A program made the position numbers and the translations under genes. Shown here piece by piece: positions 9,992-56,352 of a DNA stretch of 64,000 nucleotides (the stretch's first letter is position 1; each line of letters begins with the position of its first letter). The DNA comes from Candidatus Nanosyncoccus sp. (GTDB lineage: Bacteria > Patescibacteriota > Saccharimonadia > Saccharimonadales > Saccharimonadaceae). Location: positions 9,837-73,836 of the forward strand of contig JAZPZQ010000022.1 of the NCBI GenBank assembly GCA_045544765.1, given 5' to 3'. Below the pieces are notes generated by a model that was given only the letters and a program-made list of their open reading frames with translations, searched no databases and was not told the origin of the DNA.

Positions 9992-11035
9992 ATGAACTAC
10001 ATTGGCAGCAAGTTATCTTTACTAGATTTTATCGAAAAGTCCGTAGATGAAGTTACTTCAGGCGATTATGCTTCTGTTTGCGATTTATTTGCTGGAACTG
10101 GAGCAGTCGGAAAACACTTCAAAAAGAAGGGCAAAAAGATTGTTTCCAATGATATACAAACATACAGTTATGTCCTAAATCGCCATTATATCGGCAATCA
10201 TAAGCCTCTAGAGTTTAATGGCCTTAAGCAAGAAATTAGCGATCTAGATAAAAGCGATAATAAAATTGCTACTGTTTGCGACTATCTCACGAATATTCCT
10301 GGGGAGGATGGCTTTATTTTTACCAATTATTGCCTCGGTGGCGGTCAAGGAAGACAATATTTTTCCGATGAAAATGGGAGGAAATGTGATGCAATTAGAA
10401 ATACAATCGAAACTTGGTACAAGGTCGACAAGATAAACGAAGATGAATATTACTGTCTTCTTTGCTCTCTTCTTGAGAGTATTGATAAGGTAGCAAACAC
10501 AGCGAGCGTATATGGTGCATTTCTTAAGTCTCTAAAGAAGTCAGCGCAAAAGCCCCTTGAACTTATTCCAGCAGAACTAATCATAAATGAGAATGAGCAT
10601 TTAGTATTTAATGACGATGCGAACAAGATAGCAAGCGAACAATATGTTGATGTCCTATATTTAGATCCACCATATAATCAACGCCAATATGCTACAAACT
10701 ATCATCTGTTGGAAACTATCGCCAAAAATGATAACCCTGAAATTCATGGCAAAACTGGGCTCCGTGAATATAAGAAGCAAAAGTCATTATATTGTTCTCG
10801 CTCTCAAGTCAAAAAAGCATTTTCAGATTTAATAGCAAACGCAAAAGCAAAGTATATCTTCCTAAGCTACAACAACGAAGGGCTTCTTTCTCTAGAAGAC
10901 ATTGAAGAAATCATGGGCAGTCGCGGAGAATATGGCTTTTTCACAAAAGACTATCATCGATTCAAAGCAGACGCGGGCAGGGATTACTCCGCAGATAGAA
11001 CAATCGAATATTTACACTATGTAAAGTGCGCTTAA
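9992..11035 (+). CDS. D12-class N6-adenine DNA methyltransferase (M.NlaIII/FokI-like)
   Basis: MNYIGSK...CDLFAGTGAVG...YLDPPYN. Confidence 0.9.
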   Translation: MNYIGSKLSLLDFIEKSVDEVTSGDYASVCDLFAGTGAVGKHFKKKGKKIVSNDIQTYSYVLNRHYIGNHKPLEFNGLKQEISDLDKSDNKIATVCDYLTNIPGEDGFIFTNYCLGGGQGRQYFSDENGRKCDAIRNTIETWYKVDKINEDEYYCLLCSLLESIDKVANTASVYGAFLKSLKKSAQKPLELIPAELIINENEHLVFNDDANKIASEQYVDVLYLDPPYNQRQYATNYHLLETIAKNDNPEIHGKTGLREYKKQKSLYCSRSQVKKAFSDLIANAKAKYIFLSYNNEGLLSLEDIEEIMGSRGEYGFFTKDYHRFKADAGRDYSADRTIEYLHYVKCA

Positions 11036-13150: not shown

Positions 13151-14656
13151 ATGATTGTCGGAGACTTACGCAACAAAGTGGATTCCATCTGGGATACGAT
13201 TTGGACCGGTGGTATTACTAACCCGATTACTGCAGTTGAGCAGATTACTTATTTAATGTTCATTAAGCTGCTTGATGACAATCAGCAGAAGGACGAATCG
13301 AAAGCTAATTCCCTCGGTATTCCACTGGAGCGCAAAATCTTCGGAGAAGGCGTCTGTGTAATCTCCGAAAAACCTCGTCTCGAAGCAAATTACGAAGATA
13401 TGCGTTGGCACGTTTTTCATAATTTCGATCCAGAGACTATGTTTAATACCGTAAAGGACTACGTCTTCCCATTCATTAAGACGATCGGCGACTCCACATT
13501 TAGTAAATACATGGATAGCGCAACGTTCCTAATCCCTACACCACTGGTTCTCTCTAAGATTGTAGATGGCATCGATGCCATGGATATGAATAATAAAGAT
13601 ATCATGGGTGATGTCTACGAATATCTTCTTAGTAAAATTGCCGCTTCTGGCCAAAACGGTCAGTTCCGCACTCCGCGCCACATCATCAATATGATCGTGG
13701 AACTCATGCAACCGACACTCAATGATAATATCCTGGATCCAGCTATGGGCAGCGCCGGATTCTTGCTCTCAACTATTCGTTATGTCGGCGAACATCAAGA
13801 AGATGATCTTATGGTGCCAGAAAAGCGCGATTACTACCGCTCTAAGCTTGTTACTGGCTTTGATACCGACCAATCTATGCTTCGTATTGGAGCAATGAAC
13901 TTAATGCTCCACGGTGTCGATAGTCCAAACATCAAATACCAAGATTCGCTTTCAAACGATAATACCGAGCGCGAAGCTTACTCTATGATTATGGCTAACC
14001 CACCATTTGCTGGTAGCCTTTTCCCAGATCAAGTGTCAAAGGATCTTCTCTCACTAGCCAATACGAAGAAAACAGAACTCTTGTTTGTTGCGTTATTTAT
14101 CAAGACACTAAAGATTGGTGGCCGCTGTGCGTCAATCGTCCCGGATGGCGTCTTATTTGGTAGTAGTACGGCCCACAAGGCGCTACGCAAAGAACTTGTC
14201 GAGAATCAGAAGCTTACCGCCGTAATTTCTATGCCTTCGGGTGTATTTAAGCCATATGCAGGCGTTTCTACGGCAATCTTAATCTTCACCAAGACCGATA
14301 CTGGCGGAACCGACAAGGTTTGGTTCTATGATATGAAAGCTGATGGCTTCAGTCTAGATGATAAGCGCGCCGCAGTAAAAGAAAACGATATTCCAGATAT
14401 TATCGAACGCTTCCATAATTTGAATAACGAAGAAGATCGTAGGCGTACCGACCAATCATTCTTTGTACCTAAAGACGAAATCGCAAAGAATGGTTACGAT
14501 CTTTCTATTAATAAGTACAAAGAAGTAGAATACGAGAAAGTCGAATATCCACCAACATCTGAAATTCTTGCCGATATCGAGAAATTAGACAAGGAAGTGG
14601 CCGATAACCTTGCCGAATTAAAGAAATTATTAACCGAAACAAATTCGAATTTGTAG
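13151..14656 (+). CDS. hsdM: Type I R-M methyltransferase subunit
   Basis: GQFRTPRHII, DPAMGSAGF, ANPPF, SINKYKE. Confidence 0.96.
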   Translation: MIVGDLRNKVDSIWDTIWTGGITNPITAVEQITYLMFIKLLDDNQQKDESKANSLGIPLERKIFGEGVCVISEKPRLEANYEDMRWHVFHNFDPETMFNTVKDYVFPFIKTIGDSTFSKYMDSATFLIPTPLVLSKIVDGIDAMDMNNKDIMGDVYEYLLSKIAASGQNGQFRTPRHIINMIVELMQPTLNDNILDPAMGSAGFLLSTIRYVGEHQEDDLMVPEKRDYYRSKLVTGFDTDQSMLRIGAMNLMLHGVDSPNIKYQDSLSNDNTEREAYSMIMANPPFAGSLFPDQVSKDLLSLANTKKTELLFVALFIKTLKIGGRCASIVPDGVLFGSSTAHKALRKELVENQKLTAVISMPSGVFKPYAGVSTAILIFTKTDTGGTDKVWFYDMKADGFSLDDKRAAVKENDIPDIIERFHNLNNEEDRRRTDQSFFVPKDEIAKNGYDLSINKYKEVEYEKVEYPPTSEILADIEKLDKEVADNLAELKKLLTETNSNL

Positions 14657-15799
14657 ATGAGTATGGATAATACAATAAGACTAAAAGATGCATGCAAAAT
14701 TCTAAATGGTTTCGCATTTAAGAGTAGTAAATATGTCGATTCGGGAATTCGGATTATCCGTATAGCAAATGTCCAGAAAGGATACGTTGAAGACGAAAAG
14801 CCAGCATTCTATCCAGACTCCGAAGAACCACTAATTCGCGACTATATGCTTGAAGAAAATGATCTTCTTTTATCGCTTACCGGAAACGTCGGACGTGTTG
14901 CATTGCTAGATAAGAAATGGCTACCGGCCGCACTTAATCAACGTGTCGCTTGTTTGAGAATTAAAGATGACAGAATCATAAAAGACTATTTATACTTCGC
15001 ATTGCTTTCTGATAAATTTGAGAACGATTGTATTAAATCATCAAAAGGCATTGCGCAGAAGAATATGAGTACCGAGTGGTTAAAAGACTACGAAATACCT
15101 CTGCCGAGTGAGCAAAGGCAACGAGAAATTGTCTCTTCACTAAAACATTTATCCGCAATTATCAAAAATAAAACTGAGCAAATTCGACAATTAGACAATC
15201 TCATCAAAGCCCGATTTGTCGAGATGTTCGGCAATGTCGTAGCCAATGATAAAGGATGGCCTACCGAGCCAATATCAAAGGCGGCACCCACAAGCTCACC
15301 AAAAATCAAAAACAACGAAACGGTTTGGCTTCTTAACCTAGATATGGTCGAATCGCAATCTGGCAAGGTGATAAGCAAGCTTATCGTTTCTGAAGACAAA
15401 ATTAACGCCTCTACATGTACTTTTGATGAAAATAATGTTCTCTATTCTAAGCTTCGTCCATATCTAAATAAAGTCGTTTTGCCGGATCAAGAAGGTTATT
15501 GCACTACTGAATTAGTCCCATTAAAGCCAGGCAAAGAACTTACCAGAGAGTTCTTGGCCACATTGCTAAGAAGTGACGCATTCGTGGGCTACATTAATGA
15601 AAAGACCGCCGGCGCGAAAATGCCACGTGTTTCAATGAATATTTTTAGGCAATTCGAATGTATCCTACCACCAATTGCACTGCAACAACAATTTTCAGAA
15701 TTCTATAACCAAGTCGACAAATCAAAATTTGCCGTACAGAAGTCACTCGAAAAGACTCAACAATTATTCGATAGTTTAATGCAGGAGTATTTTGGCTAG
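14657..15799 (+). CDS. hsdS: Type I R-M specificity subunit, expressed allele (TRD1 + TRD2a)
   Basis: Two TRDs, central KARFVEMFG, C-terminal QVDKSKF...DSLMQEYFG; starts immediately after the hsdM stop. Confidence 0.95.
   Translation: MSMDNTIRLKDACKILNGFAFKSSKYVDSGIRIIRIANVQKGYVEDEKPAFYPDSEEPLIRDYMLEENDLLLSLTGNVGRVALLDKKWLPAALNQRVACLRIKDDRIIKDYLYFALLSDKFENDCIKSSKGIAQKNMSTEWLKDYEIPLPSEQRQREIVSSLKHLSAIIKNKTEQIRQLDNLIKARFVEMFGNVVANDKGWPTEPISKAAPTSSPKIKNNETVWLLNLDMVESQSGKVISKLIVSEDKINASTCTFDENNVLYSKLRPYLNKVVLPDQEGYCTTELVPLKPGKELTREFLATLLRSDAFVGYINEKTAGAKMPRVSMNIFRQFECILPPIALQQQFSEFYNQVDKSKFAVQKSLEKTQQLFDSLMQEYFG
15204..15228 (+). repeat. Shufflon repeat A, copy 1
   Basis: TCAAAGCCCGATTTGTCGAGATGTT. 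Exact inverted copy at 17326-17350; 20-bp direct copy at 18631-18650. Confidence 0.92.
15713..15732 (+). repeat. Shufflon repeat B, copy 1
   Basis: GTCGACAAATCAAAATTTGC. Inverted copy within 16819-16850; direct copy within 19132-19163. Confidence 0.92.
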
Positions 15800-15851
15800 A
15801 AAGCATCTCCTTTTGTTAGTGGAGGTTCTAATCTAACAAAAGGAGTTATTA

Positions 15852-16820
15852 ATGGAGGAAACCATTAAATACATTTTGGTGGATATGGACGAATATCTCA
15901 CCGCAAATCAGTCACAAAAACTACAACGCGTACTTGTTTCGCGCTTAACAAAAGAAACGAGATCGATAAATGGCATTTCGAACGACAACTATCTGTCAAT
16001 GTTTCTGAATGCCAAAAAGATAGAAGGATGTTCCGAGCGGACTCTATCCTACTATAAAACTACCGTAGAAAAGCTATTAGACAAAATAGACGACCCAATA
16101 CGCAAAGTAACAACTGATGATATACGGGATTACCTTGCTAACTATCAAGGCTTAAATGGTTGTAGCAAAACGACAATCGATAATATCCGCCGCAATATCT
16201 CGAGCTTCTTTACTTGGCTTGAGGAAGAAGACTATATCATTAAAAGCCCAATGCGTAGGATCCATAAAATCAAAACCACAAAAACCGTGAAAGAAATAAT
16301 CTCGGACGAAGAAATCGAAAAAATGCGCGACAGATGCAGTAGCTTACGCGACCTGGCAATTATTGACCTTCTCTACTCGACCGGAATTAGAATTGGTGAG
16401 CTCGTAAGACTTAATATTGACGACATAGACTTTGAAGAACGCGAATGCATAGTTTTCGGCAAAGGCGACAAAGAGCGGCGCGTATATTTCGATGCTAAAA
16501 CCAAGATACACCTAATGGGCTACATAAATAGCCGCTCTGACGCAAATCCTGCCCTTTTTGTGACGCTTGACGCGCCTTACGATAGATTACAGATATCTGG
16601 CGTAGAAATCCGTCTGAGGCGCTTAGGACGCGAATTAGGCATAAATAAAGTTCACCCTCATAAATTCCGCCGGACTATGGCGACACGTGCAATCGACAAA
16701 GGAATGCCGATCGAGCAGGTTCAGAAACTACTAGGACACTCTCAGATCGATACGACCATGCATTACGCGATCGTAAATCAAACAAACGTAAAAGTCGCAC
16801 ACCGTAAGTTCATCGCTTAG
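15852..16820 (+). CDS. Tyrosine recombinase (shufflon invertase/integrase)
   Basis: STGIRIGEL, GKGDKER, HPHKFRR, LGH...TTMHY catalytic residues; sits between hsdS cassettes. Confidence 0.95.
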   Translation: MEETIKYILVDMDEYLTANQSQKLQRVLVSRLTKETRSINGISNDNYLSMFLNAKKIEGCSERTLSYYKTTVEKLLDKIDDPIRKVTTDDIRDYLANYQGLNGCSKTTIDNIRRNISSFFTWLEEEDYIIKSPMRRIHKIKTTKTVKEIISDEEIEKMRDRCSSLRDLAIIDLLYSTGIRIGELVRLNIDDIDFEERECIVFGKGDKERRVYFDAKTKIHLMGYINSRSDANPALFVTLDAPYDRLQISGVEIRLRRLGRELGINKVHPHKFRRTMATRAIDKGMPIEQVQKLLGHSQIDTTMHYAIVNQTNVKVAHRKFIA

Positions 16821-16850
16821 CGCAAATTTTGATTTGTCGACCTGAGCAAC
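16819..16850 (-). repeat. Shufflon repeat B, copy 2 (inverted)
   Basis: 32-bp exact reverse complement of 19132-19163; its 20-bp core matches 15713-15732. Confidence 0.92.
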
Positions 16851-17515
16851 AAAGGCGGCGAACACGTCAATGCTCGCTTTATCGGGGACTGGAAGTTTAA
16901 CCTTATCGAGCATATATCGAGTTATCTGGTTAATTGTTGTGGTTCCTGTAGATATTTGCGAACGAAATTCTGGCAGCTGAAAATAAGTCATGAGATATGG
17001 GTAATAATCGCTTCGTACAATCATCATGAACGCGCCGAAGCTCATTTGTTCCTGAAGGTCGGGAATGAGTGCAACTTTCCCGACAAGCTTAGCACTACCG
17101 TTCCTTGAGCACATCAGAATATCATTTTTCTTTACCATCTTTTTGTCGCCGATGTCGCATTTTACGCGGACAATGTCATTAAGATCTAACCGCATGCTTT
17201 GTATGTTGCTTGAACGCAAAACAATAGTTCCGTCATTTGACACGTCTGTCGGTTTATAAGTTAGCCCGTTCCAATATTCGGCTATGTCTGAAAGTGGTTT
17301 AATTGGGTATGTTTTTGAGTCGTTAAACATCTCGACAAATCGGGCTTTGACTAACTCATCTAACTGAATTAATTCTTTGTTTCTATCGGAGATTATGGAC
17401 TCGATTTTTCGCAAAATCATGCAGGCGCGCTTTTGCCTCTCTATATCTATCCATTCGATTTCGTAGTTGCTTAGATACAAATCGGTTTTAAGATTGTGGA
17501 GACCTGTTGTTTTTT
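16822..17515 (-). pseudogene. hsdS: Silent inverted hsdS cassette (TRD2b plus truncated tail of an alternative TRD1)
   Basis: ...KTTGLHNLKTDLYLSNYEIE...KARFVEMF...QVDKSKF; no intact start and no proper C-terminal tail. Confidence 0.85.
17326..17350 (-). repeat. Shufflon repeat A, copy 2 (inverted)
   Basis: AACATCTCGACAAATCGGGCTTTGA is the reverse complement of 15204-15228. Confidence 0.92.
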
Positions 17516-17558
17516 TTGTGAATAAATGTTATAACATATTTAACAATAAGGAGGATTT

Positions 17559-18527
17559 ATGAATTATAAAAAAATAGTAGTTGCTGGTGGTGGAGTTTTA
17601 GGTAGTCAAATAGCCTTTCAATCAGCATATTGTGGATATGATGTAACAATATGGTTAAGAAGTGAAGATAGTAAAACAAGAACACAACCTAAGCTAGATG
17701 CATTAAAAAAAGATTATATTGAAACCATCGAGTCTTTAGACACTAATGATGAGAATAGTTGGGCAAGAGGAATATCTGACATTGATAGTTTTAATAAAGA
17801 GGAATGTTTAAAAAAAGTTGATCTTGCCTATAACAATATTAAATTAGAAGTTGATATGAAAGAAGCAGTGAAAGATGCAGATTTGGTAATTGAATCTATG
17901 GCTGAGATTAAAGATGAAAAAATTAAATTTTATCAAACTTTAGCTCCATTGTTAGAAGAAAAAACGGTTATTGTAACTAACTCTTCTACTCTATTACCAT
18001 CTATGTTTGCTAAATATACAGGAAGACCCGAAAAATATTTATCACTTCATTTTGCAAACACAATATGGGTTAAAAATACAGCCGAACTAATGTCTCATGA
18101 TGGAACCAACAAAAAATATTTTGATGAAATTATGGAATTTGCAACAAGTATTCGAATGCTACCTCTTCCAGTATTAAAAGAAAAATCAGGATATCTATTA
18201 AATTCTATGCTTGTACCATTTTTATTAAGTGGTATGGATTTATTAACGAATGGAATATCTGATGCTCAAAGTATTGATATTGCCTGGAAAAGAGGAACAG
18301 GAGCTCCAAAAGGACCATTTGAAATTATTGATACTGTAGGATTGACAACCGCAAAAAATATAGTTGAACAATATCAAAAAGTTCCTGGATTAATGAGTCC
18401 ATTATTAAAGAAAATGATGCTACCATATAATTATAAAGGCATGCTTAATATGTTAAATAAATACATTGACGAAGGTAAATTAGGAAAATCAACAGGCGAA
18501 GGTTTTTATAAATATGACAAATCATAA
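17559..18527 (+). CDS. 3-hydroxyacyl-CoA dehydrogenase, AT-rich foreign gene
   Basis: GGGVLGSQIA Rossmann motif, DLVIESMAE, TNSSTL, LHFAN, GPFEIIDTVGL, GKLGKSTGEGFY; strong GGAGG SD. Confidence 0.92.
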   Translation: MNYKKIVVAGGGVLGSQIAFQSAYCGYDVTIWLRSEDSKTRTQPKLDALKKDYIETIESLDTNDENSWARGISDIDSFNKEECLKKVDLAYNNIKLEVDMKEAVKDADLVIESMAEIKDEKIKFYQTLAPLLEEKTVIVTNSSTLLPSMFAKYTGRPEKYLSLHFANTIWVKNTAELMSHDGTNKKYFDEIMEFATSIRMLPLPVLKEKSGYLLNSMLVPFLLSGMDLLTNGISDAQSIDIAWKRGTGAPKGPFEIIDTVGLTTAKNIVEQYQKVPGLMSPLLKKMMLPYNYKGMLNMLNKYIDEGKLGKSTGEGFYKYDKS

Positions 18528-18630
18528 TCATTTGCAAATGTCATAATGTTGTGTTATATTTTATTTAGTAATTGAGAAAATCGTGAGTTCATAGATTTGT
18601 GCCGATTTTTCGTAAACACGTTAAATTGAG

Positions 18631-19163
18631 GCCCGATTTGTCGAGATGTTTTATGATACTGATAGCGAACGAGTAAAGATAGCTGAATTAGTTGAGCAGA
18701 AAATTCCGACTGCTAAAAAGGATTTTGAGAGCGATGCAGAGATTAAGTATATTGATATCTCATCTATCGACAATAAACGCAATATAATGACTGGATTTAC
18801 GAAATACAAAATGTCGGACGCACCTTCTAGGGCGCAACAGCATGTACAGTTTGGCGATATCCTCATATCTACTGTAAGACCAAATTTAAAGAATGTTGCC
18901 ATGGTTTCTCTTGATAGCGATAATCTGGTCGCTTCTAGCGGATTTTGTGTCTTGAGATCTAAAAAATGCACTCCAGAGTTTCTAATGGCTATAGTTTGTT
19001 CCGATAAATTTACGGACGCAATGATTAATGTTGTTACAGGCGCAAACTACCCCGCAATAAAGAACTCAGACGTATTGAATTACTGCGTTCCATTACCGAG
19101 TGAAGAACAACAAAGGAATTTTTCAAACTTCGTTGCTCAGGTCGACAAATCAAAATTTGCGCT
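18631..19163 (+). pseudogene. hsdS: Silent TRD2c cassette bounded by repeat A (18631-18650) and repeat B (19132-19163)
   Basis: MFYDTD...STVRPNL...STG-like SSGF...GANYPAI...QVDKSKF; lacks TRD1. Forms the first ~170 aa of ORF 18646..22356. Confidence 0.85.
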
Positions 19164-19221
19164 TCAAAAATCCATCATAAGCCTTATGAATTTATGCAGT
19201 TTATGGTATAATATGAGTAAT

Positions 19222-22200
19222 ATGTTTTCGAGCGGCTATATGGGAAGACTCGAGCTAATTCGAGCACTTCCTACGAAGGAAGAGAAAGCTAAGGCGTCAC
19301 GCCTAGTTCTTCGTGAAGTACTCGAACAAATCTTTCCAGAGAAATCAGCTAAGAAAAAGAAAAAATACTCTCTTCTTGAGCTGATTGACTGCTCCCCAAT
19401 AAGAAACTATGTAAACGACGATCAGGTTACCGAATCGCTTCACTTTATTCGTATTATAGGTATTCGTGCTGAACATAATCAGCCAGTTCGTGAGAAAGAT
19501 GTAAAAATTGCCGTAGATAACCTGGAATACTTCATAAAGTTCTTGGACAACAAGAATAACACTTATGAAGAGCCAACGAAGTCTCCGGAATATTTCTCGG
19601 AAGCTGAAACTAGGGCGGCATATATCGACATGTATCTACGCGAAGCCGGATGGGATGTACTAACCCAAAAAGGCGTAGCCCTTCCTGGTAAAGCCGGTAT
19701 AGAAATAGAAGTCGGCAATATGCCTAACAACGCAGGTGTTGGCTACTGCGATTATGTACTTTACGACCGCGCCGGCAAGCCACTTGCTGTTGTCGAAGCG
19801 AAAAAGACTTCAAAGGATCCGCAAATTGGCCGTCATCAGGCAGACCTTTATGCGGAATCGCTGAAAGAAAAGTTTGGTTATAAACCAGTAATCTACTACA
19901 CAAATGGCTACGAGACCCATGTTATTGATGGCGTTTATCCTGATCGGAAAGTAACAGCATTCCACACTCTTGAAGAACTTGAGCGTATGATTCAGCGCCG
20001 AAATCGCGGCAATATAACTGATATGGCCGCAAAAGACGAAATCGCTGGCCGTCCATACCAAAAGATGGCCCTTACGCGCATGTGTGAGCGCTTTAACGCG
20101 CATCATCGCCGCGGACTAGTAGTTATGGCTACCGGCACCGGTAAAACGCGTGTATCAATCGCTTTGACGGATATTTTGGCAAGAAATGGCTGGATCAAGA
20201 ATGTCCTATTCTTAGCCGATCGAACTTCTCTCGTTAAGCAGGCAAAACGTAACTACGCAAAGCTTCTGCCAGATATGACAATCTGCGAGCTTTCTGAAGG
20301 CGGAAACGCAAACAAAGACATGAATGCTCGCTTGATGTTCTGTACTTATCAAACGATGATCAACTATATTGACGCCGAAGACAAAGATTTCTCGACTGGA
20401 CGTTTTGACTTGATTATCGTCGATGAGGCACACCGCTCAATCTTTAACCGTTACGCTTCGATTTTTGCCTATTTCGATAGCTTACTTGTCGGCTTTACCG
20501 CTACACCACGCGACGAAGTCGGAAGTAGCACATATGGAATATTCGAGTGTGAATCCGGAGAGCCAACTTTTGATTATCCACTAGAAGATGCAATTAAAGA
20601 GCATTATCTTGTAGGCTATGAAGTTATTAACCGTCATTCCCGTATTATGACGCAAGGTATTAAGCGCGAAGAACTGGACGAAGATCAACTCGAACAGTTG
20701 GATGATTTTCTTGAAGGCGACCGCGAAACGCCAGACTTAACAATTCCGGCAAATGCAATTTTCCGCTCTATTTTCAATGAAGATACTTGTCGCAGCGTAC
20801 TTGAAGACTTAATGGAAAAAGGCATCCGCGTAAATGGCGGTGAAACTATCGGAAAAACAATCATTTTTGCATACAACCACAAACACGCCGAAATGATCGT
20901 TAATGAATTCAAGAAGCTTTACCCCCATCTTCCATCAAATACCTGTCAGTTGGTCGACTATTCCGTAAACTACGCCGAAGATCTAGTAGTTAAGTTTGAC
21001 ACCGATGATGAGTTTAGAATTGCTGTTTCTGTCGATATGCTCGACACCGGTATCGATGTTCCTGCCGTTTCCAACCTCATGTTCTTCAAGCCAGTGCGTT
21101 CAAAGATTAAGTTTGTCCAGATGATTGGTCGCGGTACGCGTCTCTGCCCAGACTTGTTTGGTCCAGGCAACGACAAAAAGAAGTTCCTTATCTTCGATTA
21201 TTGCGATAACTTTGAATATTTCCAGGTAGAACATAACGAAGTAGTTAGCGCCGGCGATAAAGTTTCACTATCGCAAAGAATCTTCGCACTTCGATCAGAA
21301 ATCGCATATAGCCTCCAAGATTTCGAAAGTCAAGAAGACGAATTTCTCAGTAGCTATCGCGACAAAACCGTCCGCATACTCCTCGATATTGTTAAGGATT
21401 TAAAGAAAAGTACCAACCGTATTGCTGTTCGCCAAAATCTAAAATACGTCGATAAATATAACAACGACAAAGCATGGCTTGCTCTAACACCTGTAAATGT
21501 TCATGAACTTAAGACTTTTGTCGCACCACTTATTGAAGGCGGCTCTGACTCCGATTTCAAGGCTCTATCATTCGATATTAGAATGATGAGGATCCAGAGA
21601 GCAATATTGAAAAATACCCCAGCTTATGCGACTGCCGACGTAAAGAAAGTACGCGAAATAGCGCAATACCTTCTTCAAAACAAGATGACTATTCCGCAGG
21701 TTGAAGCCAAGAAAGATGATCTTAAAGAGCTATATGATGAATCTAGCTGGAATGAGCCACAAGTAAAAGACCTAGAGCGTCTACGCGATTCCGTACGCGA
21801 GCTAATTAAGTACATTACTGGCGACGAACTCAGATTAATCGATATCGACGTAAGCGACGAACTTGTAGATCCAGACTTCCAACCAGACGGTACAGTTATC
21901 GATATTCGCACATACAAGGAACGTGTAATTGATTACTTAACGAAGAATGGCGACGACATAACCATTGAAAAGATTCGCAATCTTGAAAAACTTGATCAGA
22001 AAGATGCTGAAAAGCTCAAACAATTGCTTTGGTTTGATTTAGGCTCCGAAGACGAATATAACGAGAATGCAAATGGTAAAAGCCTTGCTGCATTCGTACG
22101 TAGCTTGATAGGTATAGACCAAGATGCTGTAAATGAAAAGTTTGGCGAGTACCTTAATGCTCATCAACTTAATTCTAAACAGCAAGAATTCATTAATTTT

Positions 22201-22356
22201 ATCGTCAAATATGTCCAAAAGAACGGCGACATTGAACTTGCTGACCTACTAAAGACGGATCCGTTCAAATCCATCGACTGGAATGAACTATTTGGTGGCA
22301 ACGTAGAGCCAATCAAATACACTGTATCAGTACTCCATGATGCAATTGCCGCATAA
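19222..22356 (+). CDS. hsdR: Type I R-M restriction subunit (probable start 19222; frame open from 18646)
   Basis: DYVLY...VEAKK nuclease, MATGTGKT, DEAH, SVDMLDTG, QMIGRGTR. TGGTATAAT at 19204-19212 sits 9 nt before ATG 19222. Confidence 0.93.
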   Translation: MFSSGYMGRLELIRALPTKEEKAKASRLVLREVLEQIFPEKSAKKKKKYSLLELIDCSPIRNYVNDDQVTESLHFIRIIGIRAEHNQPVREKDVKIAVDNLEYFIKFLDNKNNTYEEPTKSPEYFSEAETRAAYIDMYLREAGWDVLTQKGVALPGKAGIEIEVGNMPNNAGVGYCDYVLYDRAGKPLAVVEAKKTSKDPQIGRHQADLYAESLKEKFGYKPVIYYTNGYETHVIDGVYPDRKVTAFHTLEELERMIQRRNRGNITDMAAKDEIAGRPYQKMALTRMCERFNAHHRRGLVVMATGTGKTRVSIALTDILARNGWIKNVLFLADRTSLVKQAKRNYAKLLPDMTICELSEGGNANKDMNARLMFCTYQTMINYIDAEDKDFSTGRFDLIIVDEAHRSIFNRYASIFAYFDSLLVGFTATPRDEVGSSTYGIFECESGEPTFDYPLEDAIKEHYLVGYEVINRHSRIMTQGIKREELDEDQLEQLDDFLEGDRETPDLTIPANAIFRSIFNEDTCRSVLEDLMEKGIRVNGGETIGKTIIFAYNHKHAEMIVNEFKKLYPHLPSNTCQLVDYSVNYAEDLVVKFDTDDEFRIAVSVDMLDTGIDVPAVSNLMFFKPVRSKIKFVQMIGRGTRLCPDLFGPGNDKKKFLIFDYCDNFEYFQVEHNEVVSAGDKVSLSQRIFALRSEIAYSLQDFESQEDEFLSSYRDKTVRILLDIVKDLKKSTNRIAVRQNLKYVDKYNNDKAWLALTPVNVHELKTFVAPLIEGGSDSDFKALSFDIRMMRIQRAILKNTPAYATADVKKVREIAQYLLQNKMTIPQVEAKKDDLKELYDESSWNEPQVKDLERLRDSVRELIKYITGDELRLIDIDVSDELVDPDFQPDGTVIDIRTYKERVIDYLTKNGDDITIEKIRNLEKLDQKDAEKLKQLLWFDLGSEDEYNENANGKSLAAFVRSLIGIDQDAVNEKFGEYLNAHQLNSKQQEFINFIVKYVQKNGDIELADLLKTDPFKSIDWNELFGGNVEPIKYTVSVLHDAIAA

Positions 22357-26217: not shown

Positions 26218-27924
26218 ATGTTTGATAACATGGGAAACTCTACCCCTGTAAATACCGGCCAAACTAACGAGCCGCAACTAACAAGAAAAGCCGTTCTATT
26301 CGCTCGCGTATCAACGGCGCGACAAGAAAAAGAAGGCTTATCTCTCGATGAAATTCAGCTACCGCGAATGCGCGATTATGCAATCGAGCAAAACTTGAAA
26401 ATCGTACGAGAATACGCCATTGGCGAGACTGGCGGCAGCTACAAGGAGCGTAAACGTTTCAACGAGATGATCCAGTTTCTAAAGGATAATCCGGACGTAA
26501 CGGATATTATCGCCTTCCGCGTAGATCGTATTACCAGGAACTTCCGCGACGCGGTAACGATTGAAGACTTACGTATTAAATACGGCAAGCGTATCCACTG
26601 TGTCGATGAAAGACTGATTCTCTCGGAGAATAGCCGCGCGACCGACCTCACATCTTGGAATGTGAAGGTTTTTGTGGGTCAGGAATATCTGAACCGTATT
26701 AAGGAAGATGGCTTAAACACGAAGATTAATAAACTGTCGCGTGGCGAGCTACCATGGAGCGCGCCTTATGGTTATGAATTTAGGACCATTAGTGTCAGAC
26801 CGAAGGTTAAAAACGTCGTACCAGTAGAACCGGCCGCCTCGATCGTAAAAGAAGTATTCTTGCTCTTCTCAACCGGAACTTATTCATGTAGGACTTTGGC
26901 GAGACTAATGAACAAGAAATACGGAACTAAATTCTCTCAAGGAATCATCCATAAATTCCTAAGATGCGAGTTTTATGTTGGATTTATTATCGATAAAAAA
27001 GGCGGAAAGAAATATCCGCATAATTATGAGAAGATAATAGATCGGGAGTTATTCGATATGGTCAACCAGATATTGGACAAGAGAAATCTAAAGAGCGACG
27101 ACCAGGTACCAAAGTATGGCGGAATAGACTCAGCTTATCGCGGTTTAATAAGGTGTGAAGAGTGTGGATGCACGATAACGCCAGAATTTAAGAAGCGCAA
27201 ACTAAGACATGGCGGCTATAATTACCATAAATACTACCACTGCACAAATCGACGCGGAGCACATAAGAGCTTGAAAAGCTATACCGAAAGCTACCTTGAT
27301 GAGCAAGTAAAAGAGTTCTTAAGAGGCTTAAAGCTAACCGAGGAAGAATTGGACGGAGTCAGAAAGGCACTGGCCGAAGCACACGCTGGAAAGATAGATT
27401 TCTATCGCGAGCAACGCCGAAGCTTGTCTCAAAAGCGCAAGAAACTAGAAGCGAGACAACAGGAAGCTTACGATATGTTGATGGACAAGAGTATTACTCT
27501 GGAACTTTATAACCAAAATAACGAGCGATATCGCAACGAACTGGCCGAGATCCAGGCGCAAGAAGCCGCGCTAGATCGAGCCGACGACAACTTCTATACT
27601 AACGCCGGCTATATCTTGAAAGTCTTTAAATATGCCGATAAATTATTCGACGTCGCGACGACGGCCGAAAAAAGAGACCTAATTGGTCTCGTCACGTGTT
27701 CGAACCGAACTTTAGGACCTAGTGGGCTGATATTACAGGGGTCAGGACCGTTCGCTCGGAACCTTTTGGACTCTAAAACTAAAAATGGCTGGGGTGAAGG
27801 GATTCGAACCCCTGAATGGTGGGACCAGAACCCACTGCCTTACCACTTGGCGACACCCCAGTACAAAACTAATTATATCACAAGTTTATTCGCTTCGCAA
27901 CGCTTCCACCGGGTCTTTGCGTGA
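26218..27924 (+). CDS. Large serine recombinase (integrase)
   Basis: LFARVS catalytic Ser, VDRITRN, APYGY, Zn ribbon CEECG...YYHC, coiled coil. The last ~46 codons are antisense tRNA and flank. Confidence 0.93.
   Translation: MFDNMGNSTPVNTGQTNEPQLTRKAVLFARVSTARQEKEGLSLDEIQLPRMRDYAIEQNLKIVREYAIGETGGSYKERKRFNEMIQFLKDNPDVTDIIAFRVDRITRNFRDAVTIEDLRIKYGKRIHCVDERLILSENSRATDLTSWNVKVFVGQEYLNRIKEDGLNTKINKLSRGELPWSAPYGYEFRTISVRPKVKNVVPVEPAASIVKEVFLLFSTGTYSCRTLARLMNKKYGTKFSQGIIHKFLRCEFYVGFIIDKKGGKKYPHNYEKIIDRELFDMVNQILDKRNLKSDDQVPKYGGIDSAYRGLIRCEECGCTITPEFKKRKLRHGGYNYHKYYHCTNRRGAHKSLKSYTESYLDEQVKEFLRGLKLTEEELDGVRKALAEAHAGKIDFYREQRRSLSQKRKKLEARQQEAYDMLMDKSITLELYNQNNERYRNELAEIQAQEAALDRADDNFYTNAGYILKVFKYADKLFDVATTAEKRDLIGLVTCSNRTLGPSGLILQGSGPFARNLLDSKTKNGWGEGIRTPEWWDQNPLPYHLATPQYKTNYITSLFASQRFHRVFA
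27786..27860 (-). tRNA. tRNA-Gln(CTG)
   Basis: Cloverleaf; anticodon arm GTGGG-TTCTGGT-CCCAC; GGTTCGAATCC; encoded CCA. Confidence 0.96.
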
Positions 27925-51202: not shown

Positions 51203-51751
51203 TTATTCGACCGAAAGAATCTTACCGGTACCGTGCTCCAATTTCAGTAATCTCTGATTTTTCGAACCTCTAAATCTTAAACTCAGATCCCTTTGTTTTA
51301 AGATAAATGGACCATCAATCAAAGCATCCAGTGATTTTAATAGTTCCCAAGGTTCTTTACCGTATTCTTTGATTATCTCATAAGTAAAGCCCGAAAAGCT
51401 CCACGCGTCCCAACCGAGTTCCTTCCGTACATAATCTGCAATCTGTTTACAGGCCTTAGGCTGGACAAATGGCTCGCCCCCGCAAAAAGTTAGTCCAGTT
51501 TGCCCCTTAAATTTCGATAACTGTTCTAAAACGTCTGCAATCGGCACCAGCATCCCAGCGCAATAATCCCAAGTTTCCGGATTTTGGCACCCTGGGCAAT
51601 GGTTCGGGCAGCCTTGCGTCCAAAGCACCGCTCTTAGGCCATCGCCATTGACAATATTATCGTGTTCCAAGGGTCCCGACAGCCGAATATACCCCTCCGG
51701 CGTCTCGAGTTGCTTGGCGATTTTTTCTAGTGAAATCTTGTGATAATCCAT
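51203..51751 (-). CDS. nrdG: Anaerobic RNR activating radical SAM protein
   Basis: VNGDGLR, QGCPNHCPGC, GGEPF, FRGSKNQR. Confidence 0.95.
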   Translation of the reverse strand: MDYHKISLEKIAKQLETPEGYIRLSGPLEHDNIVNGDGLRAVLWTQGCPNHCPGCQNPETWDYCAGMLVPIADVLEQLSKFKGQTGLTFCGGEPFVQPKACKQIADYVRKELGWDAWSFSGFTYEIIKEYGKEPWELLKSLDALIDGPFILKQRDLSLRFRGSKNQRLLKLEHGTGKILSVE

Positions 51752-51762
51752 AAAGTGATGTG

Positions 51763-51881
51763 AGTAAAAGCATAAATAGAATTCGAGGGTTGCCGCAGGT
51801 CACGACCGAGGACTAGGACGATTTTCCCCGTAACGACGGGCGAAAATCGTCCGCAACCCGAGAAACTATTTATGCTTTACT
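51763..51881. repeat. ~119-bp hairpin/MITE-like element between nrdD and nrdG
   Basis: Terminal IRs share AAAGCATAAATAG and GGGTTGC; inner stem GGACGATTTTC-CCCGT/ACGGG-C-GAAAATCGTCC. Confidence 0.7.
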
Positions 51882-54074
51882 TTCTCCTTTCGCACAATTA
51901 CAAATCTTCTCAAAGGGAATGTCGCCTTCGAGCCTCCCGCAATGCGGGCACCTATCACCTGTAATCACACCCGAAAACCCGCACACTGGGTCACGATCTA
52001 CCGGATGATTTACCGACCCATAGCCAATTCCGCAGTCATGCATTTTGCGAATCACCGCTTCAAATGCCGCGATATTTTGCGACGGGTCACCGTCTAGCTC
52101 GATGTAAGTAATATGTCCCGCGTTACAAAGATTATGATACGGTGCCTCAATCTCAATCTTCTCAAATGCCGAAATCGGGAAGTATACCGGCACATGGAAG
52201 GAATTGGTATAGAACTCGCGGTCGGTTACGCCCGGAATTATGCCGTATTCCTTGCGGTCAAGCTTCGTAAACCGCCCCGCAATCCCTTCCGCCGGAGTAG
52301 CGAGCAATGAGAAATTCAATTTGTACTTTTTACAGTATTCGTCACATTTCTCTCGCATATGCGTAATAATATCCAGACCAAGTTCCCGCGCATCCTCATC
52401 TTCGCCGTGATGCTTCCCCACCATCGCGACCAAAGTTTCCGCAAGCCCGATAAACCCAATCGAGAGCGTACCATGCTTAATCACATCGCGCAGAGTGTCA
52501 TTTGGCCCCAATTTCTCTGATCCGAACCAGTTACCCTGCCCCATCAGGAATGGGAAGTTGCGTACATGCTGATTCGCCTGGAACTCAAACCGCTCCAGCA
52601 GCTCGTCTTTTACCAAATCTAGTTTCTCGTCTAACTCATGATAGAACCCATCCCAATCAGCCTCTTTGCGCTCGCCTAGGCAAACCCCGTGCTTAATCCC
52701 AATCCGCACCAGATTAATCGTTGTAAATGACAAATTCCCGCGCCCTGTTACAATTCCATCCGACTCCGGAAACACCGATGCGAACACCCGCGTCCGGCAA
52801 CCCATCGTCGCAATTTCCGTCCGATAATCGCCTTTCTTATAATACTTCAAGTTATACGGCGCATCGATAAAACAGAAATTCGGGAATAGCCGCTTCGCCG
52901 AGACTTCCATCGACTTCTTAAACAAATCATAATTCGGGTCATCTGGCTCATAGTTCACCCCAGATTTTACCTTGAAAATTGAAATCGGGAAAATCGGCGT
53001 CTCGCCCTTACCTAGGCCATTTTCGGTCGCCTCAAGCAAGTATTTAGAGACTAGGCGCCCAGCTGGCGAAGTGTCCGTCCCAAAGTTAATTGAAGTAAAT
53101 GGCACCTGCGCCCCAGCCCTTGAGTGCATCGTGTTAAGGTTATGGATAAAACCTTCCATCGCCTGTAAAGTCTCTCTTTCCACGTCCTCATTCGAAGACT
53201 CAACTACTTCCTTTGGCCATTTAGCTTTCTCTAATTTTTTGTCATCACCATATTCGTAAGTATCTTTAACTTCTAGGTCGAGTTTTTTGCCGGTAAATTT
53301 GTTATATTTAGCGAGATTTCGCTTCAAAGCCTTACGGAAAGACTTATTCACCCCTGGTGCCATTGCGTAATCGAAATTTGGAATTGATTGTCCACCGTGC
53401 TGCTCATTTTGGTTAGCTTGAAGCAAAATCGCCGCGAGCGCCCCGTAGGAGCCAATCGAATTTGGGGTACGCAAATGCCCGTGCCCGGTGTTAAACCCGC
53501 CATTTTCAAACAACACAAACGGATCACTCTGGCAGCAAGTCAAAGTCCCTGTCGCATAAAAATCCAAATCGTGAATATGAATATCACCGCTGTCGTGCGC
53601 CTCGGCAATATCAGGACGCAGTAGCAATGACTTCGCAAACACCTTCGAGCCTTCCGCGCCAAATTGTAGCATCTTGCCCATCGCCGAGTTACCATCCACG
53701 TTAGCGTTGGACCGCTTCACATCCGAATCCTCACTCGCATCCGCGTGAGAAATCGTCCGATAAATCATCATCAGGTCCGACTTCGCTTCGCGCCTCCTCG
53801 AACGTTCCTGTCGATACTGGATATAAGCCTTCGCCGTCTTCTTGAAGCTCGATTCCATCAACACCTCTTCCACGATGTCTTGGATCTGCTCCACATTCGG
53901 CGTGCGCGCTGTAATCTTCTCCTCCGCCCGCTTCAATACCTTCTCAGTCAGAGCTTTTGCCCTATCATACTTAAACTCCTCCGTAGCCAGCCCCGCCTTC
54001 GCAATCGCCTCCGTAATCTTTTCCGGGTCAAATTTTACAATTTTCCCGTCTCGCTTCACGATTCTTTTAAACAT
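51870..54074 (-). CDS. nrdD: Class III (anaerobic) ribonucleotide reductase with ATP cone; lacks the C-terminal RITGY glycyl-radical segment
   Basis: IVKRDG ATP cone, HIHDLDF, TCCQ, MGCRT, ATPAEG, YTNSFH, CPHC; ends ...PFEKICNCAKGESKA. ATG 54074 after GGAGG. Confidence 0.93.
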   Translation of the reverse strand: MFKRIVKRDGKIVKFDPEKITEAIAKAGLATEEFKYDRAKALTEKVLKRAEEKITARTPNVEQIQDIVEEVLMESSFKKTAKAYIQYRQERSRRREAKSDLMMIYRTISHADASEDSDVKRSNANVDGNSAMGKMLQFGAEGSKVFAKSLLLRPDIAEAHDSGDIHIHDLDFYATGTLTCCQSDPFVLFENGGFNTGHGHLRTPNSIGSYGALAAILLQANQNEQHGGQSIPNFDYAMAPGVNKSFRKALKRNLAKYNKFTGKKLDLEVKDTYEYGDDKKLEKAKWPKEVVESSNEDVERETLQAMEGFIHNLNTMHSRAGAQVPFTSINFGTDTSPAGRLVSKYLLEATENGLGKGETPIFPISIFKVKSGVNYEPDDPNYDLFKKSMEVSAKRLFPNFCFIDAPYNLKYYKKGDYRTEIATMGCRTRVFASVFPESDGIVTGRGNLSFTTINLVRIGIKHGVCLGERKEADWDGFYHELDEKLDLVKDELLERFEFQANQHVRNFPFLMGQGNWFGSEKLGPNDTLRDVIKHGTLSIGFIGLAETLVAMVGKHHGEDEDARELGLDIITHMREKCDEYCKKYKLNFSLLATPAEGIAGRFTKLDRKEYGIIPGVTDREFYTNSFHVPVYFPISAFEKIEIEAPYHNLCNAGHITYIELDGDPSQNIAAFEAVIRKMHDCGIGYGSVNHPVDRDPVCGFSGVITGDRCPHCGRLEGDIPFEKICNCAKGESKA

Positions 54075-54078
54075 ATTA

Positions 54079-54127
54079 CCTCCATATATAGTGTCTAACA
54101 TCAATAATAACACACCATATATAGCAT
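54079..54127. promoter_or_regulatory. Tandem NrdR boxes
   Basis: CCTCCATATATAGTGT (54079-54094) and ACACCATATATAGCAT (54112-54127) match acaCwATATaTwGtgt; 33 bp start to start. Confidence 0.75.
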
Positions 54128-54365
54128 TTCAAGACCATTTATGCTTATTTTTCCACAAAAAATCGACAAACGTCGATCTTGGTGGACTTTAGCAAGGCTC
54201 GCATCGAGCTTTAGCGAGATAGAGCCTGGCTTTTTGAAGTTTTATTTCAATAAAAAATGGTGGGGGGCGAATTGAGCAGGTATTAACAACCTATAGGAAA
54301 GACATTCGGGAAAAGTTGAACTATGCTATAATAGAAACATAAGCATTATAGAAAGGATAATTTTT

Positions 54366-55244
54366 ATGGAACAAAATGTAGATACTAGTGCACCGGTGAC
54401 ACCAGTGGCACCTGTAGTAGAAAATAAGCAAAAAGGTAGAAATGGATTAAAAATTGCCGTTGTGGTTGCATGTATTGTCGCGGTGGCCGGAATTGTGTTT
54501 GGAATCATTACGTTGCTACAAGCATTGAAAAAAGATGAGCAGATTACTCAGCTAAATCAACAATTGGTAGACTGCACGGGTATCAGTAACAATAGTAATA
54601 TAACTGGAGAAAATGAGACAATCTGTTCAAATGAAGTGATAGCTGAAGTTGCTGATGGTAAAATTAATAATTATTTGGCTCAAACGATAGTGGATCCATA
54701 TTTAGTGTATTTTGGAAGATTCCGTAATATATTTGACCATGATTTTGATACAGATGCCAAGATGAAAATTGCGTTTGATAATCTAGGTCCAGAAAATATT
54801 ATTCTTTCAATGACTACTGATCAAAGTGTGGTCGTATCTTATGACAGCCTAAATGCGAAGTATCAGGATTTGTTTGGGAGAGATCAGGAAATAGAAAAAC
54901 GTAGTTATGATTCGCCATATTTAGATTTATCTTTTGAAAATGATTTGTTCAAGATTAGCTTTGGCGGTATTGGTGGTACTGGTGGAACAATGTTCTCTAT
55001 CGTTAAAGAGGCGCGTTATAATAACGATGAATTAGTGGTGGACGTATATCATGATACCGCCCCTTGGTGTGAAACCATAGAGAACAGAACTGGCGATGAT
55101 TATTGCGTAGATGCTTATTCAGGTGGGAAGAGTGAAAATGTCTATAACTTAATAAAGAATTTTTCAGATAAAATACCCGTATACATGATGACTTTTGCAA
55201 AAGACGATTGGCATTACGTGCTGAAGGATGTACAGAAAAAGTAG
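54366..55244 (+). CDS. Single-TM surface protein, paralogue 1
   Basis: MEQN...NGLKIAVVVAC TM, coiled coil, extracellular domain ending PVYMMTFAKDDWHYVLK. Confidence 0.75.
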   Translation: MEQNVDTSAPVTPVAPVVENKQKGRNGLKIAVVVACIVAVAGIVFGIITLLQALKKDEQITQLNQQLVDCTGISNNSNITGENETICSNEVIAEVADGKINNYLAQTIVDPYLVYFGRFRNIFDHDFDTDAKMKIAFDNLGPENIILSMTTDQSVVVSYDSLNAKYQDLFGRDQEIEKRSYDSPYLDLSFENDLFKISFGGIGGTGGTMFSIVKEARYNNDELVVDVYHDTAPWCETIENRTGDDYCVDAYSGGKSENVYNLIKNFSDKIPVYMMTFAKDDWHYVLKDVQKK

Positions 55245-55432
55245 CGCAATTGGTGAAATATAGCGATTGGAGCGAACTGAATACTTATTAATGATTTGAG
55301 AGGCCATGCTAGATAGATATCCGAGAAGGGCTAGTTGCGAGTTGATGGGCATTAATAATCTTTTAGGATAGCATTCGGGAAGACTGAACTGTGCTATAAT
55401 TGGAACATAAGCATCATAGAAAGGAAATAGTA

Positions 55433-56352
55433 ATGGAACAAAACATGAATGCTGAGGCTCCGGCAGCATCAACGACGTCATCTGCATCAACATCACCAGC
55501 GTCGGTACCGGTTCAACCGATACTTGCGGCGCCAGTGTTAGGGGGCAAGAAAAATGGCGGTAATGGATTAAAATAGCTACCGCAATTGCGTGTGTTATGG
55601 CGGTTTGTGGTATTGGGTTTGGTGTTTACGGGATGATACAAAGTTCTCAAAGAAGCAATCAAACCGATACCCCAAAAGATGGAACTGCGACTATTGTTGT
55701 CGAATCTGATAATTTAAGTTTAAAGCAAGTAAGAGATTTGCTTAATAAATATATTAATTTCGATTATAATGTAACATCGACAGAAAACAACCTCTTCGAG
55801 AATGGACTAACTGAACGATATAAATATTATCTTTCTCTTAAAAATCTAAACTATACCGATAAAAATAGTGCTATCCATGAAAACGCTGGTGCACCCGGTG
55901 AGGATACAGCAGATTACGAGTATAGTTTTACCTATGATGATATCAATAACACTTACCATAGTTTGTTCGGTTCCAATAGTGATGTTCAAAATCAAGAAGA
56001 TTTTTGGTGTTTCGTACCTTTTTTCTCTGAAGAATATAATAAATATATTTCAATTATTCGATGTGGAGGAGTCGACCCATCTATATATGCTTACGAAATT
56101 CTTGATTATTTTGTTGATAGCGATAAGCTAACCGTGGATATTGCATACATACATATATTTGGGGACTACAATAATGGTGAATGGAAAAAATATATAGCAT
56201 TAGATAGTAGCAATGAAGAGATTGTTGGAGAGGCTTCTAACTATCTTAGTGCTAACTACTTCACAGAACATGAAAATGACTTGCCTAAGTATCAGTTAAT
56301 ATTTGAAAAAGAAGATTCGAACTATATTCTCACGGGCGTAAACAGGCTTTAA
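55433..56352 (+). pseudogene. Single-TM surface protein, paralogue 2, with 1-nt frameshift at 55570-55573
   Basis: MEQNMNAE...NGLK* then IATAIACVMAVCG in another frame. A4 here versus A5 in paralogue 1; same promoter/SD block upstream. Confidence 0.75.

Follow-up and report, generated by a model that had tools for sequence, protein, structure and literature searches.

We analysed the class III ribonucleotide reductase (RNR) locus in a 64,000-nucleotide stretch of Candidatus Nanosyncoccus sp. (contig JAZPZQ010000022.1; the whole stretch is referred to as the window). The locus lies on the minus strand, as do all of its features described below unless stated otherwise, and comprises nrdD (51870-54074), a hairpin-forming spacer of 118 nt (51752-51869) and nrdG (51203-51751). 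The product of nrdD is a class III catalytic subunit of 734 amino acids (aa) which has no glycyl-radical loop, based on Pfam NRDD, PRK07111 and an alignment to the structure PDB 8P23; that of nrdG is an intact radical S-adenosylmethionine (SAM) activase of 182 aa (TIGR02491, E 3.5e-36; Fer4_12). Class III RNRs, like all glycyl-radical enzymes, are defined by a C-terminal glycyl radical as cofactor. NrdD starts at MFKRIVKRDG, and the upstream GTG at 54113 merely reads through the NrdR boxes. The protein matches Pfam NRDD (PF13597) with an E of 2.5e-179 over profile positions 2-529 of 562, and NCBIfam PRK07111 with 1026.8 bits (cut-off 764) over positions 1-709 of 746, which leaves the last ~35 profile positions unmatched. 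NrdG scores 124.5 bits against TIGR02491, just under the cut-off of 126.1, and its CxxxCxxC region is present.

From the N-terminus, NrdD contains an ATP-cone (aa 4-92, 53799-54065; PF03477, E 2.8e-22), the segment SNANVDGNSAMG (53676-53711), which is the counterpart of the NxN flap of P. copri NrdD in the 8P23 alignment, the TCCQ motif with the first-strand catalytic Cys (aa 179-182, 53529-53540), retained in all relatives, and MGCRT with the finger-loop thiyl-radical Cys (aa 424-428, 52791-52805). In P. copri the NxN flap contacts both the glycyl-radical domain and the substrate (PMC11226230); MGCRT is a single-Cys motif of the formate type, one of the finger-loop classes distinguished previously (PMC9669993). 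Concerning the C-terminal region, motif reading and the 8P23 alignment identify DPVCGFSGVITGDRCPHCG (DPVC...CPHCG; aa 695-713, 51936-51992) as a Zn ribbon, the remnant of the glycyl-radical domain. C-terminal comparisons with relatives show that the final homologous segment is PFEKI (51903-51917), which corresponds to the canonical ...PFERI/RRITGYL; the truncation point (slash) lies directly 3' of it, and only a hypervariable terminal peptide, CNCAKGESKA, and a TAA stop follow (51870-51902). The window protein ends ...GRLEGDIPFEKI-CNCAKGESKA, and its closest full-length relatives run on as ...VPFERI-RRITGYLVGTLDRFNDAKKAEEKDRVKH; it stops 2-3 residues short of the position of RRITGYL in relatives.

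The closest solved structure, P. copri NrdD (8P23), aligns with an E of 1.6e-188 over chain residues 5-704 of 743, and the Gly711 region is unaligned. The glycyl-radical domain of the P. copri enzyme spans residues 676-739 and consists of the Zn site, the buried Gly711 loop and a C-terminal tail (PMC11226230). Since the alignment ends at residue 704, the window protein has the Zn ribbon and lacks the Gly loop and everything beyond it. The barrel, both Cys motifs and the activase of a class III RNR are present, the C-terminal R-[IV]-x-G-Y loop is absent, and none of the ten large open reading frames (ORFs) of the window that were scanned is another RNR. By every sequence feature tested except the glycyl-radical loop, the window protein is a class III RNR. 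The sequence-only reading had described a tail-less NrdD with ATP cone, TCCQ, MGCRT and Zn site next to an intact nrdG, and the profiles, motifs and structural alignment bear this out. The tandem NrdR boxes it had listed are found as two NrdR-box-like sites upstream of nrdD, CCTCCATATATAGTGT (54079-54094, plus strand) and ACACCATATATAGCAT (54112-54127, plus strand), which are 33 bp apart and have two mismatches each. Taken alone, the degenerate pattern shows no excess over the window (5 matches vs 2.8 expected), and the weight of the two sites comes from their being paired directly upstream of nrdD.

The distribution of this end point was examined in two sets. The first consists of the 120 closest database proteins, which share 91-95% identity with the window protein; those that have a name are labelled Candidatus Saccharibacteria or Nanosyncoccus. 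For the second, one genome per GTDB species was scanned; 536 contained a relative, and the best 80 were examined. Their titles are Saccharibacteria/Nanosyncoccus or unnamed bacterium, most come from sheep, goat, yak, buffalo and cattle guts, and their NrdD is 89-97% identical to that of the window. All 120 proteins and all 80 species genomes have the same end point, with the break after FE[KR][VIL], and no full-length NrdD was seen in either set. The residues after the break (2-17 in number) are hypervariable: CNCAKGE, ACC, CDCGC, QNCNC, CDCVNCDCADCSCTKKD, LS, LA and INK are examples, mostly Cys-rich and without any conserved residue. The loss of the glycyl-radical loop is clade-wide in Nanosyncoccus. 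Homologues of 766 and 773 aa were considered as carriers of a relocated Gly domain and rejected, as their N-terminal extra sequence is read-through over the NrdR boxes. A terminal CxC or Gly was likewise rejected as an alternative radical site, since the tails ending FERLS, FERLA and FEKINK contain neither. A terminal CxC is also found at the end of the large subunits of many of the split systems described below (D. piger ...PRCCR, Eubacteriales ...FCGCE, phage ...VCCGE); it may have a role, and it is dispensable in several Nanosyncoccus species.

The gene nrdG is directly downstream of nrdD in every Nanosyncoccus locus that reaches that far (66-90% identity). There is no spacer in Ca. N. alces and most other species, where the stop of nrdD and the start of nrdG share bases (TAATG). 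The spacer hairpin of the window (minimum free energy -61 kcal/mol, z -6.7) was found again only in L013, the closest relative (97% over 97 nt), and in part in L014; it has no second copy in the window and no Rfam match, and is absent in other species, including L001, where stop and start overlap. The hairpin is a late local insertion. Also, it is covered by the metatranscriptome contig described below, and could stabilise or attenuate the transcript.

The sequence-only reading had named three circumstances that would overturn it, namely an assembly error, a private truncation and truncation by the adjacent hairpin element, and none of them holds. Metagenome contigs of related strains are collinear over nrdG, spacer and nrdD, a gut metatranscriptome contig (51768-51951) spans the nrdD stop codon collinearly without a joint, and more than 80 independent assemblies agree, which excludes an assembly error. 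A private truncation is excluded by the end point common to all 80 species genomes, and the hairpin, or a mobile element, as cause by the fact that most relatives end at the same residue without a hairpin. The same data bear on the idea that an event in the DNA or RNA brings the tail back, be it assembly correction, an intron or trans-splicing, recoding, or bypass across the hairpin. There is a strong hairpin after the nrdD stop of the window, and in two phage-like contigs (L004 and L097, see below) an intron-like insert with an endonuclease gene splits the Gly motif, so the idea has some basis; however, beyond the agreement of the assemblies and the jointless transcript contig, no frame within ±10 kb contains tail-coding sequence and no Rfam intron match was obtained, and in most assemblies the overlap of the TAA stop with the nrdG ATG leaves no room for an exon. 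We consider restoration of this kind extremely unlikely.

Comparisons of the window nrdD with other species give a non-synonymous divergence (dN) of ~0.058, and a synonymous divergence (dS) above 2 or not computable in 71 of 78 comparisons; dS is saturated, and dN/dS is therefore at most ~0.02. For nrdG, dN is ~0.15 and dN/dS ~0.05. Based on 106 relatives from outside Nanosyncoccus, NrdD keeps all 53 core columns which are at least 93% conserved, and only two of the 141 columns at least 80% conserved differ. Within the clade (187 distinct sequences), 475 of 630 columns are at least 98% invariant. Selection spans the whole barrel, both catalytic Cys, the NxN flap and the TPAEG Glu, and so extends beyond the ATP-cone. 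The nrdD core and the adjacent nrdG are under strong purifying selection, and the metatranscriptome contig shows that the nrdD–nrdG region is transcribed. The gene nrdD has been described as the RNR gene acquired by mammal-associated Saccharibacteria, with G3 and G5 versions that cluster with those of Clostridia (McLean et al., PMC7427843).

These results argue against a further explanation, that NrdD no longer reduces ribonucleotides and has taken on another role, for example nucleotide sensing by its ATP-cone, with deoxyribonucleoside triphosphates salvaged from the host bacterium. Saccharibacteria are epibionts with reduced metabolism (PMC7427843) and the defining radical site is absent, both of which would fit such a role. 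Selection, however, acts on the catalytic barrel with both Cys, flap and Glu, the radical-SAM activase, for which no further role is known, is kept at the dN/dS given above, and the NrdR-box-like sites remain upstream; we regard a non-catalytic NrdD as very unlikely. With a truncation that is real and maintained by selection, the enzyme must get its radical in another way.

A separate carrier of the Gly loop was searched for in all six frames with an R[IV]xGY-type motif and a hidden Markov model (HMM) built from 64 canonical tails. Neither gave a match in the nrdD–nrdG spacer or in the whole 64-kb window, which agrees with the earlier finding that no frame of the spacer encodes RITGY. The search was equally negative in 1.45 Mb of flanks (±10 kb, 80 species). 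Taken together, the sequence searched comes to ~165-170 kb once redundancy is removed, about a fifth of a Saccharibacteria genome at a size of ~0.7-1 Mb. A metagenome scan for a Nanosyncoccus carrier returned 80 loci, none of them among Nanosyncoccus-like genes; the apparent Nanosyncoccus-like gene at L144 is a rubrerythrin and not nrdG.

In other bacteria and in phages, the Gly loop is found on separate genes. When homologues were searched for among 1.84 billion cluster representatives, ~27 of the 30 best NrdD clusters (50-61% identity) also had no Gly motif after CPxCGR and carried family-specific tails instead. Tail sequences were used as queries in two protein searches, which gave 47 and more than 7,900 clusters, respectively, of proteins of 41-72 aa; those of the larger set are stand-alone proteins of 41-68 aa that read ...FERIRRITGYLVGTLDRFN...DRVKH. 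A minority of the stand-alone tail clusters are pieces of broken genes, such as P0329, which was rejected as a stand-alone whole domain because it is a frameshifted nrdD beside a prophage. The sequence-only reading had mentioned stand-alone RRITGYL ORFs in gut Clostridia, and very many do exist, including on Eubacteriales chromosomes. Eubacteriales (contigs of 2-3 Mb) and Desulfovibrio piger have compact operons of the order nrdD–mini-ORF–nrdG. There, the split nrdD encodes 751-761 aa and ends ...L+KKYP..P..CC, and the mini-ORF (48 or 55 aa) has its own ribosome-binding site. The mini-proteins of Eubacteriales (MBM6913858.1, 48 aa) and D. piger (WP_072333953.1, 55 aa) are named 'anaerobic ribonucleoside-triphosphate reductase' by NCBI and match the last ~35 positions of the NrdD models only. 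In the phage-like contigs L006 and L087, an ORF of 47-48 aa (M..VVSERERGKGVGFSRIRRITGYLTGDL.TW..AK.AEE.DRVKH) with a perfect Shine-Dalgarno sequence follows the large gene at a distance of 1-2 kb, and nrdG is further on. The phage collection yielded distant nrdD homologues only.

Among the best 80 metagenome loci, 61 contain a stand-alone ORF of less than 150 aa. Where enough upstream sequence is available (39 loci), the large subunit is directly upstream of the mini-ORF in 31, its match ending at window residues 716-732, and nrdG is usually just downstream. The end point of the window NrdD, before the Gly loop and at or near ...CPxCGR-x(5-10), matches the large subunits of these 31 loci as well as those of L088, L092 and L097. 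In the remaining eight of the 39, the mini-ORF is accompanied by neither nrdD nor nrdG in the available flanks (up to 10 kb), and unlinked carriers therefore exist. Orphan mini-proteins of the NrdD glycyl-radical type (49-128 aa) are found in L127, L128, L129, L135, L143, L146, L167 and L175 (near position 10000 in long loci). That of L143 lies between a Crp/Fnr-like regulator and a rubrerythrin, an ordinary bacterial neighbourhood, and several share a conserved leader of ~70 aa (..DGEYVDLxY..). These orphans may serve class III RNR as spare parts in the manner of GrcA.

The large subunits of the phage-type split enzymes in L006 (5300-5453) and L087 (8000-8109) retain a degenerate Gly domain, ..EMWNKIKGY...GNPDEEADR.SN (tail HMM, E 3e-4), besides the separate mini-ORF. 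A duplicated 3' end, of which the fused copy then decayed, is the probable origin of the split. In L004 (12415-13286) and L097 (2286-3340), the Gly-loop gene is itself broken exactly after the radical Gly codon (RR[VI]TG/YLVGTL...) by an insert that carries an HNH endonuclease gene and resembles a group I intron; the insert appears to use the most conserved nrdD codons as its homing site. Many of the relatives P0123-P0201 have 900-1,800 aa, with inteins at the MGCR finger loop (window aa ~421-428). A split intein was rejected, as the tail of the large subunit begins with P, A or G and the mini-ORF has no HN-C/S/T junction. A trans-acting glycyl-radical domain appears to be a widespread natural gene arrangement for class III RNR, and a literature search found no description of a tail-less or two-piece NrdD.

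Concerning ancestry, a neighbour-joining tree of the NrdD core places Nanosyncoccus inside a clade dominated by tail-less large subunits, with a Eubacteriales split enzyme and the canonical P0121 and P0122 as its nearest neighbours. The NrdG of L097 is among the closest to that of Nanosyncoccus (62-72% identity); the large subunit of L097 breaks at the same position (...PFDKL/), with a separate Gly-loop gene behind it. In L120, where the enzyme is canonical and fused, the NrdG is ~65% identical. As the closest relatives are both split (L097) and fused (L120), the ancestral Nanosyncoccus NrdD could have been either.

Based on these comparisons, the account we favour, with somewhat more confidence than doubt, is that the Nanosyncoccus NrdD is a functional catalytic subunit of a formate-type class III RNR, without a glycyl-radical domain and served in trans by a carrier encoded elsewhere. 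The common ancestor of Nanosyncoccus would have lost the Gly loop and the C-terminal helix that follows it, and kept the Zn ribbon. NrdG would still put the glycyl radical on a small, separately encoded carrier protein, whose Gly loop would enter the open barrel slot beside the finger-loop Cys of MGCRT and give the radical in trans. The ~80% of the genome beyond the sequence read would contain the carrier gene, away from the operon. The trans model is suggested by the operons in which a mini-ORF stands between tail-less nrdD and nrdG, and by GrcA, which rescues pyruvate formate-lyase in the same manner. To our knowledge, making a glycyl radical is the only job of NrdG.

Several observations weigh against a carrier. 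No carrier ORF is present in the window or in the flanks searched, and the slot between nrdD and nrdG, where other split systems have it, is empty in all 80 species, which show an overlap or a short spacer there. Among ~170 mini-ORFs inspected, none is labelled Saccharibacteria or lies amid Nanosyncoccus-like genes. Nanosyncoccus is unique among the systems examined in that the Gly loop is found on nothing in the sequence sampled. That a split NrdD works is a prediction from gene arrangement, and the mini-ORFs found as orphans elsewhere might serve full-length enzymes as spare parts and not be obligate subunits. The sequence-only reading had proposed that a separate small protein supplies the Gly loop; such proteins are real in other bacteria and phages, and neither the operon and the window nor the ±10 kb around the locus in the 80 species yielded one.

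The absence of a carrier also leads to a different proposal, that the reaction is initiated without a glycyl radical: SAM bound to NrdG would generate the finger-loop thiyl radical more directly, or via another residue, and no carrier would be involved. The 5'-deoxyadenosyl radical would then be employed in the way that class II RNR employs adenosylcobalamin. The constant adjacency of nrdD and nrdG, often with translational coupling and with nothing between them in the 80 species, would fit this, as would the fully conserved catalytic core and the lack of a carrier in any sequence sampled, the last with the reservation that the search covered ~20% of the genome. A clade-specific extension of 19-20 aa at the N-terminus of NrdG is a further point in its favour. 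In the window this extension comprises NrdG aa 1-19 (51695-51751); its consensus is ..hkisl.ki.kq.e.P.G, and the alignment shows that it is not present in canonical or split-system NrdGs. Two candidates within NrdG were rejected. The extension is not a Gly tail fused onto NrdG, as it has no significant similarity to canonical tails (shuffle p 0.19-0.73), and the IRLSGPL segment is not a substitute for RRITGYL, as it is found in ordinary NrdGs too and its Gly varies.

Initiation without a glycyl radical has no precedent among glycyl-radical enzymes, and it meets a steric problem, as the radical Cys is buried in the barrel. Glycyl-radical activases, such as the pyruvate formate-lyase activase and NrdG, act on an extruded peptide loop. 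The hypervariable terminal peptide, which at times contains neither Cys nor Gly, offers no conserved radical site, and neither does the variable Gly of IRLSGPL. We regard such initiation as unlikely, and its specific form, in which Nanosyncoccus has no carrier at all and NrdG and SAM start the tail-less NrdD as a SAM-dependent counterpart of class II RNR, as a little less likely again. In the class II enzyme NrdJ, the 5'-deoxyadenosyl radical makes the thiyl radical directly, with no stored protein radical (PMC12288474), which makes it the analogue for this proposal. Unlike NrdJ, the Nanosyncoccus NrdD does not belong to class II by sequence and is partnered by a radical-SAM activase, and no B12 domain or B12-related gene was seen.

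Returning to the account with a carrier, the locus can be compared with known systems. It shares with canonical NrdD/NrdG systems (P. copri 8P23; phage T4 1H78/1H79) the ATP-cone, NxN flap, barrel, first-strand Cys, MGCR Cys, Zn ribbon, activase and NrdR-box-like sites; however, the canonical enzyme has a buried radical-Gly loop (Gly711 in P. copri) and a C-terminal helix and tail, whereas the Nanosyncoccus protein ends just past the Zn ribbon. With the three-gene split operons (D. piger, Eubacteriales, L006 and L087) it has in common the PRK07111-type subfamily (~55-60% identity), the same end region, often a CC or CxC end, and nrdG downstream. In those operons the Gly loop is its own cistron with a ribosome-binding site, and the large subunit usually has a degenerate tail of 25-35 aa (..L+KKYP..P..CC); Nanosyncoccus has neither.

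GrcA/YfiD and Y06I of phage T4 are small, activase-activated Gly-loop proteins which complete a truncated enzyme in trans, as the proposed carrier would (PMC12288474). GrcA mends an oxygen-cleaved pyruvate formate-lyase that is made full-length, whereas the Nanosyncoccus RNR subunit is tail-less by its gene, and any carrier would therefore be obligate. Nanosyncoccus does not have the make-up of a GrcA-type spare-part system, as the clade shows no full-length NrdD and the sequence searched no small paralogue. Split phage RNR genes in general are already known, and the catalytic subunit encoded by nrdA-a/nrdA-b of Aeromonas phage Aeh1 is in pieces and still functional, in a setting of introns, inteins and homing endonucleases (PMC3653736). 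Aeh1 and the other split phage RNR genes are class I or interrupted by introns or inteins, whereas the case of Nanosyncoccus is chromosomal, genus-wide and a loss of the radical loop only.

Other features of the window are described here briefly. Upstream of nrdD, a promoter- or 5' untranslated region-like segment of ~80 nt is duplicated (54279-54357 and 55348-55425, 71-90% identity), with the ends ...TGCTATAAT...AGAAAGGA. The two copies precede paralogous proteins with N-terminal membrane anchors (54366-55244 and 55597-56352), and the region 54279-56352 resembles a gene family arranged in tandem whose leader is conserved. HsdM and HsdR of a type I restriction-modification system, the latter with an N-terminal specificity-domain match, and a large serine recombinase are found at 13151-22356 and 26218-27924.

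A whole genus of bacteria from ruminant guts keeps a class III RNR and its activase under strong selection without the site of the cofactor, and in thousands of other genomes that site is encoded as a separate protein of 45-120 aa. The gene arrangements point to a two-piece architecture of class III RNR, so far undescribed and common among gut anaerobes and the phages of these. Present names of the mini-ORFs treat them as the whole reductase. If the trans model is true, class III RNR has a natural two-subunit form, with a catalytic and a small radical subunit, parallel to the alpha and beta subunits of class I; the 'spare part' idea of GrcA would then extend from repair to obligate assembly, with a bearing on oxygen tolerance, regulation and annotation. 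If Nanosyncoccus has no carrier, its enzyme would represent a new initiation chemistry, relevant to the evolution of the RNR classes.

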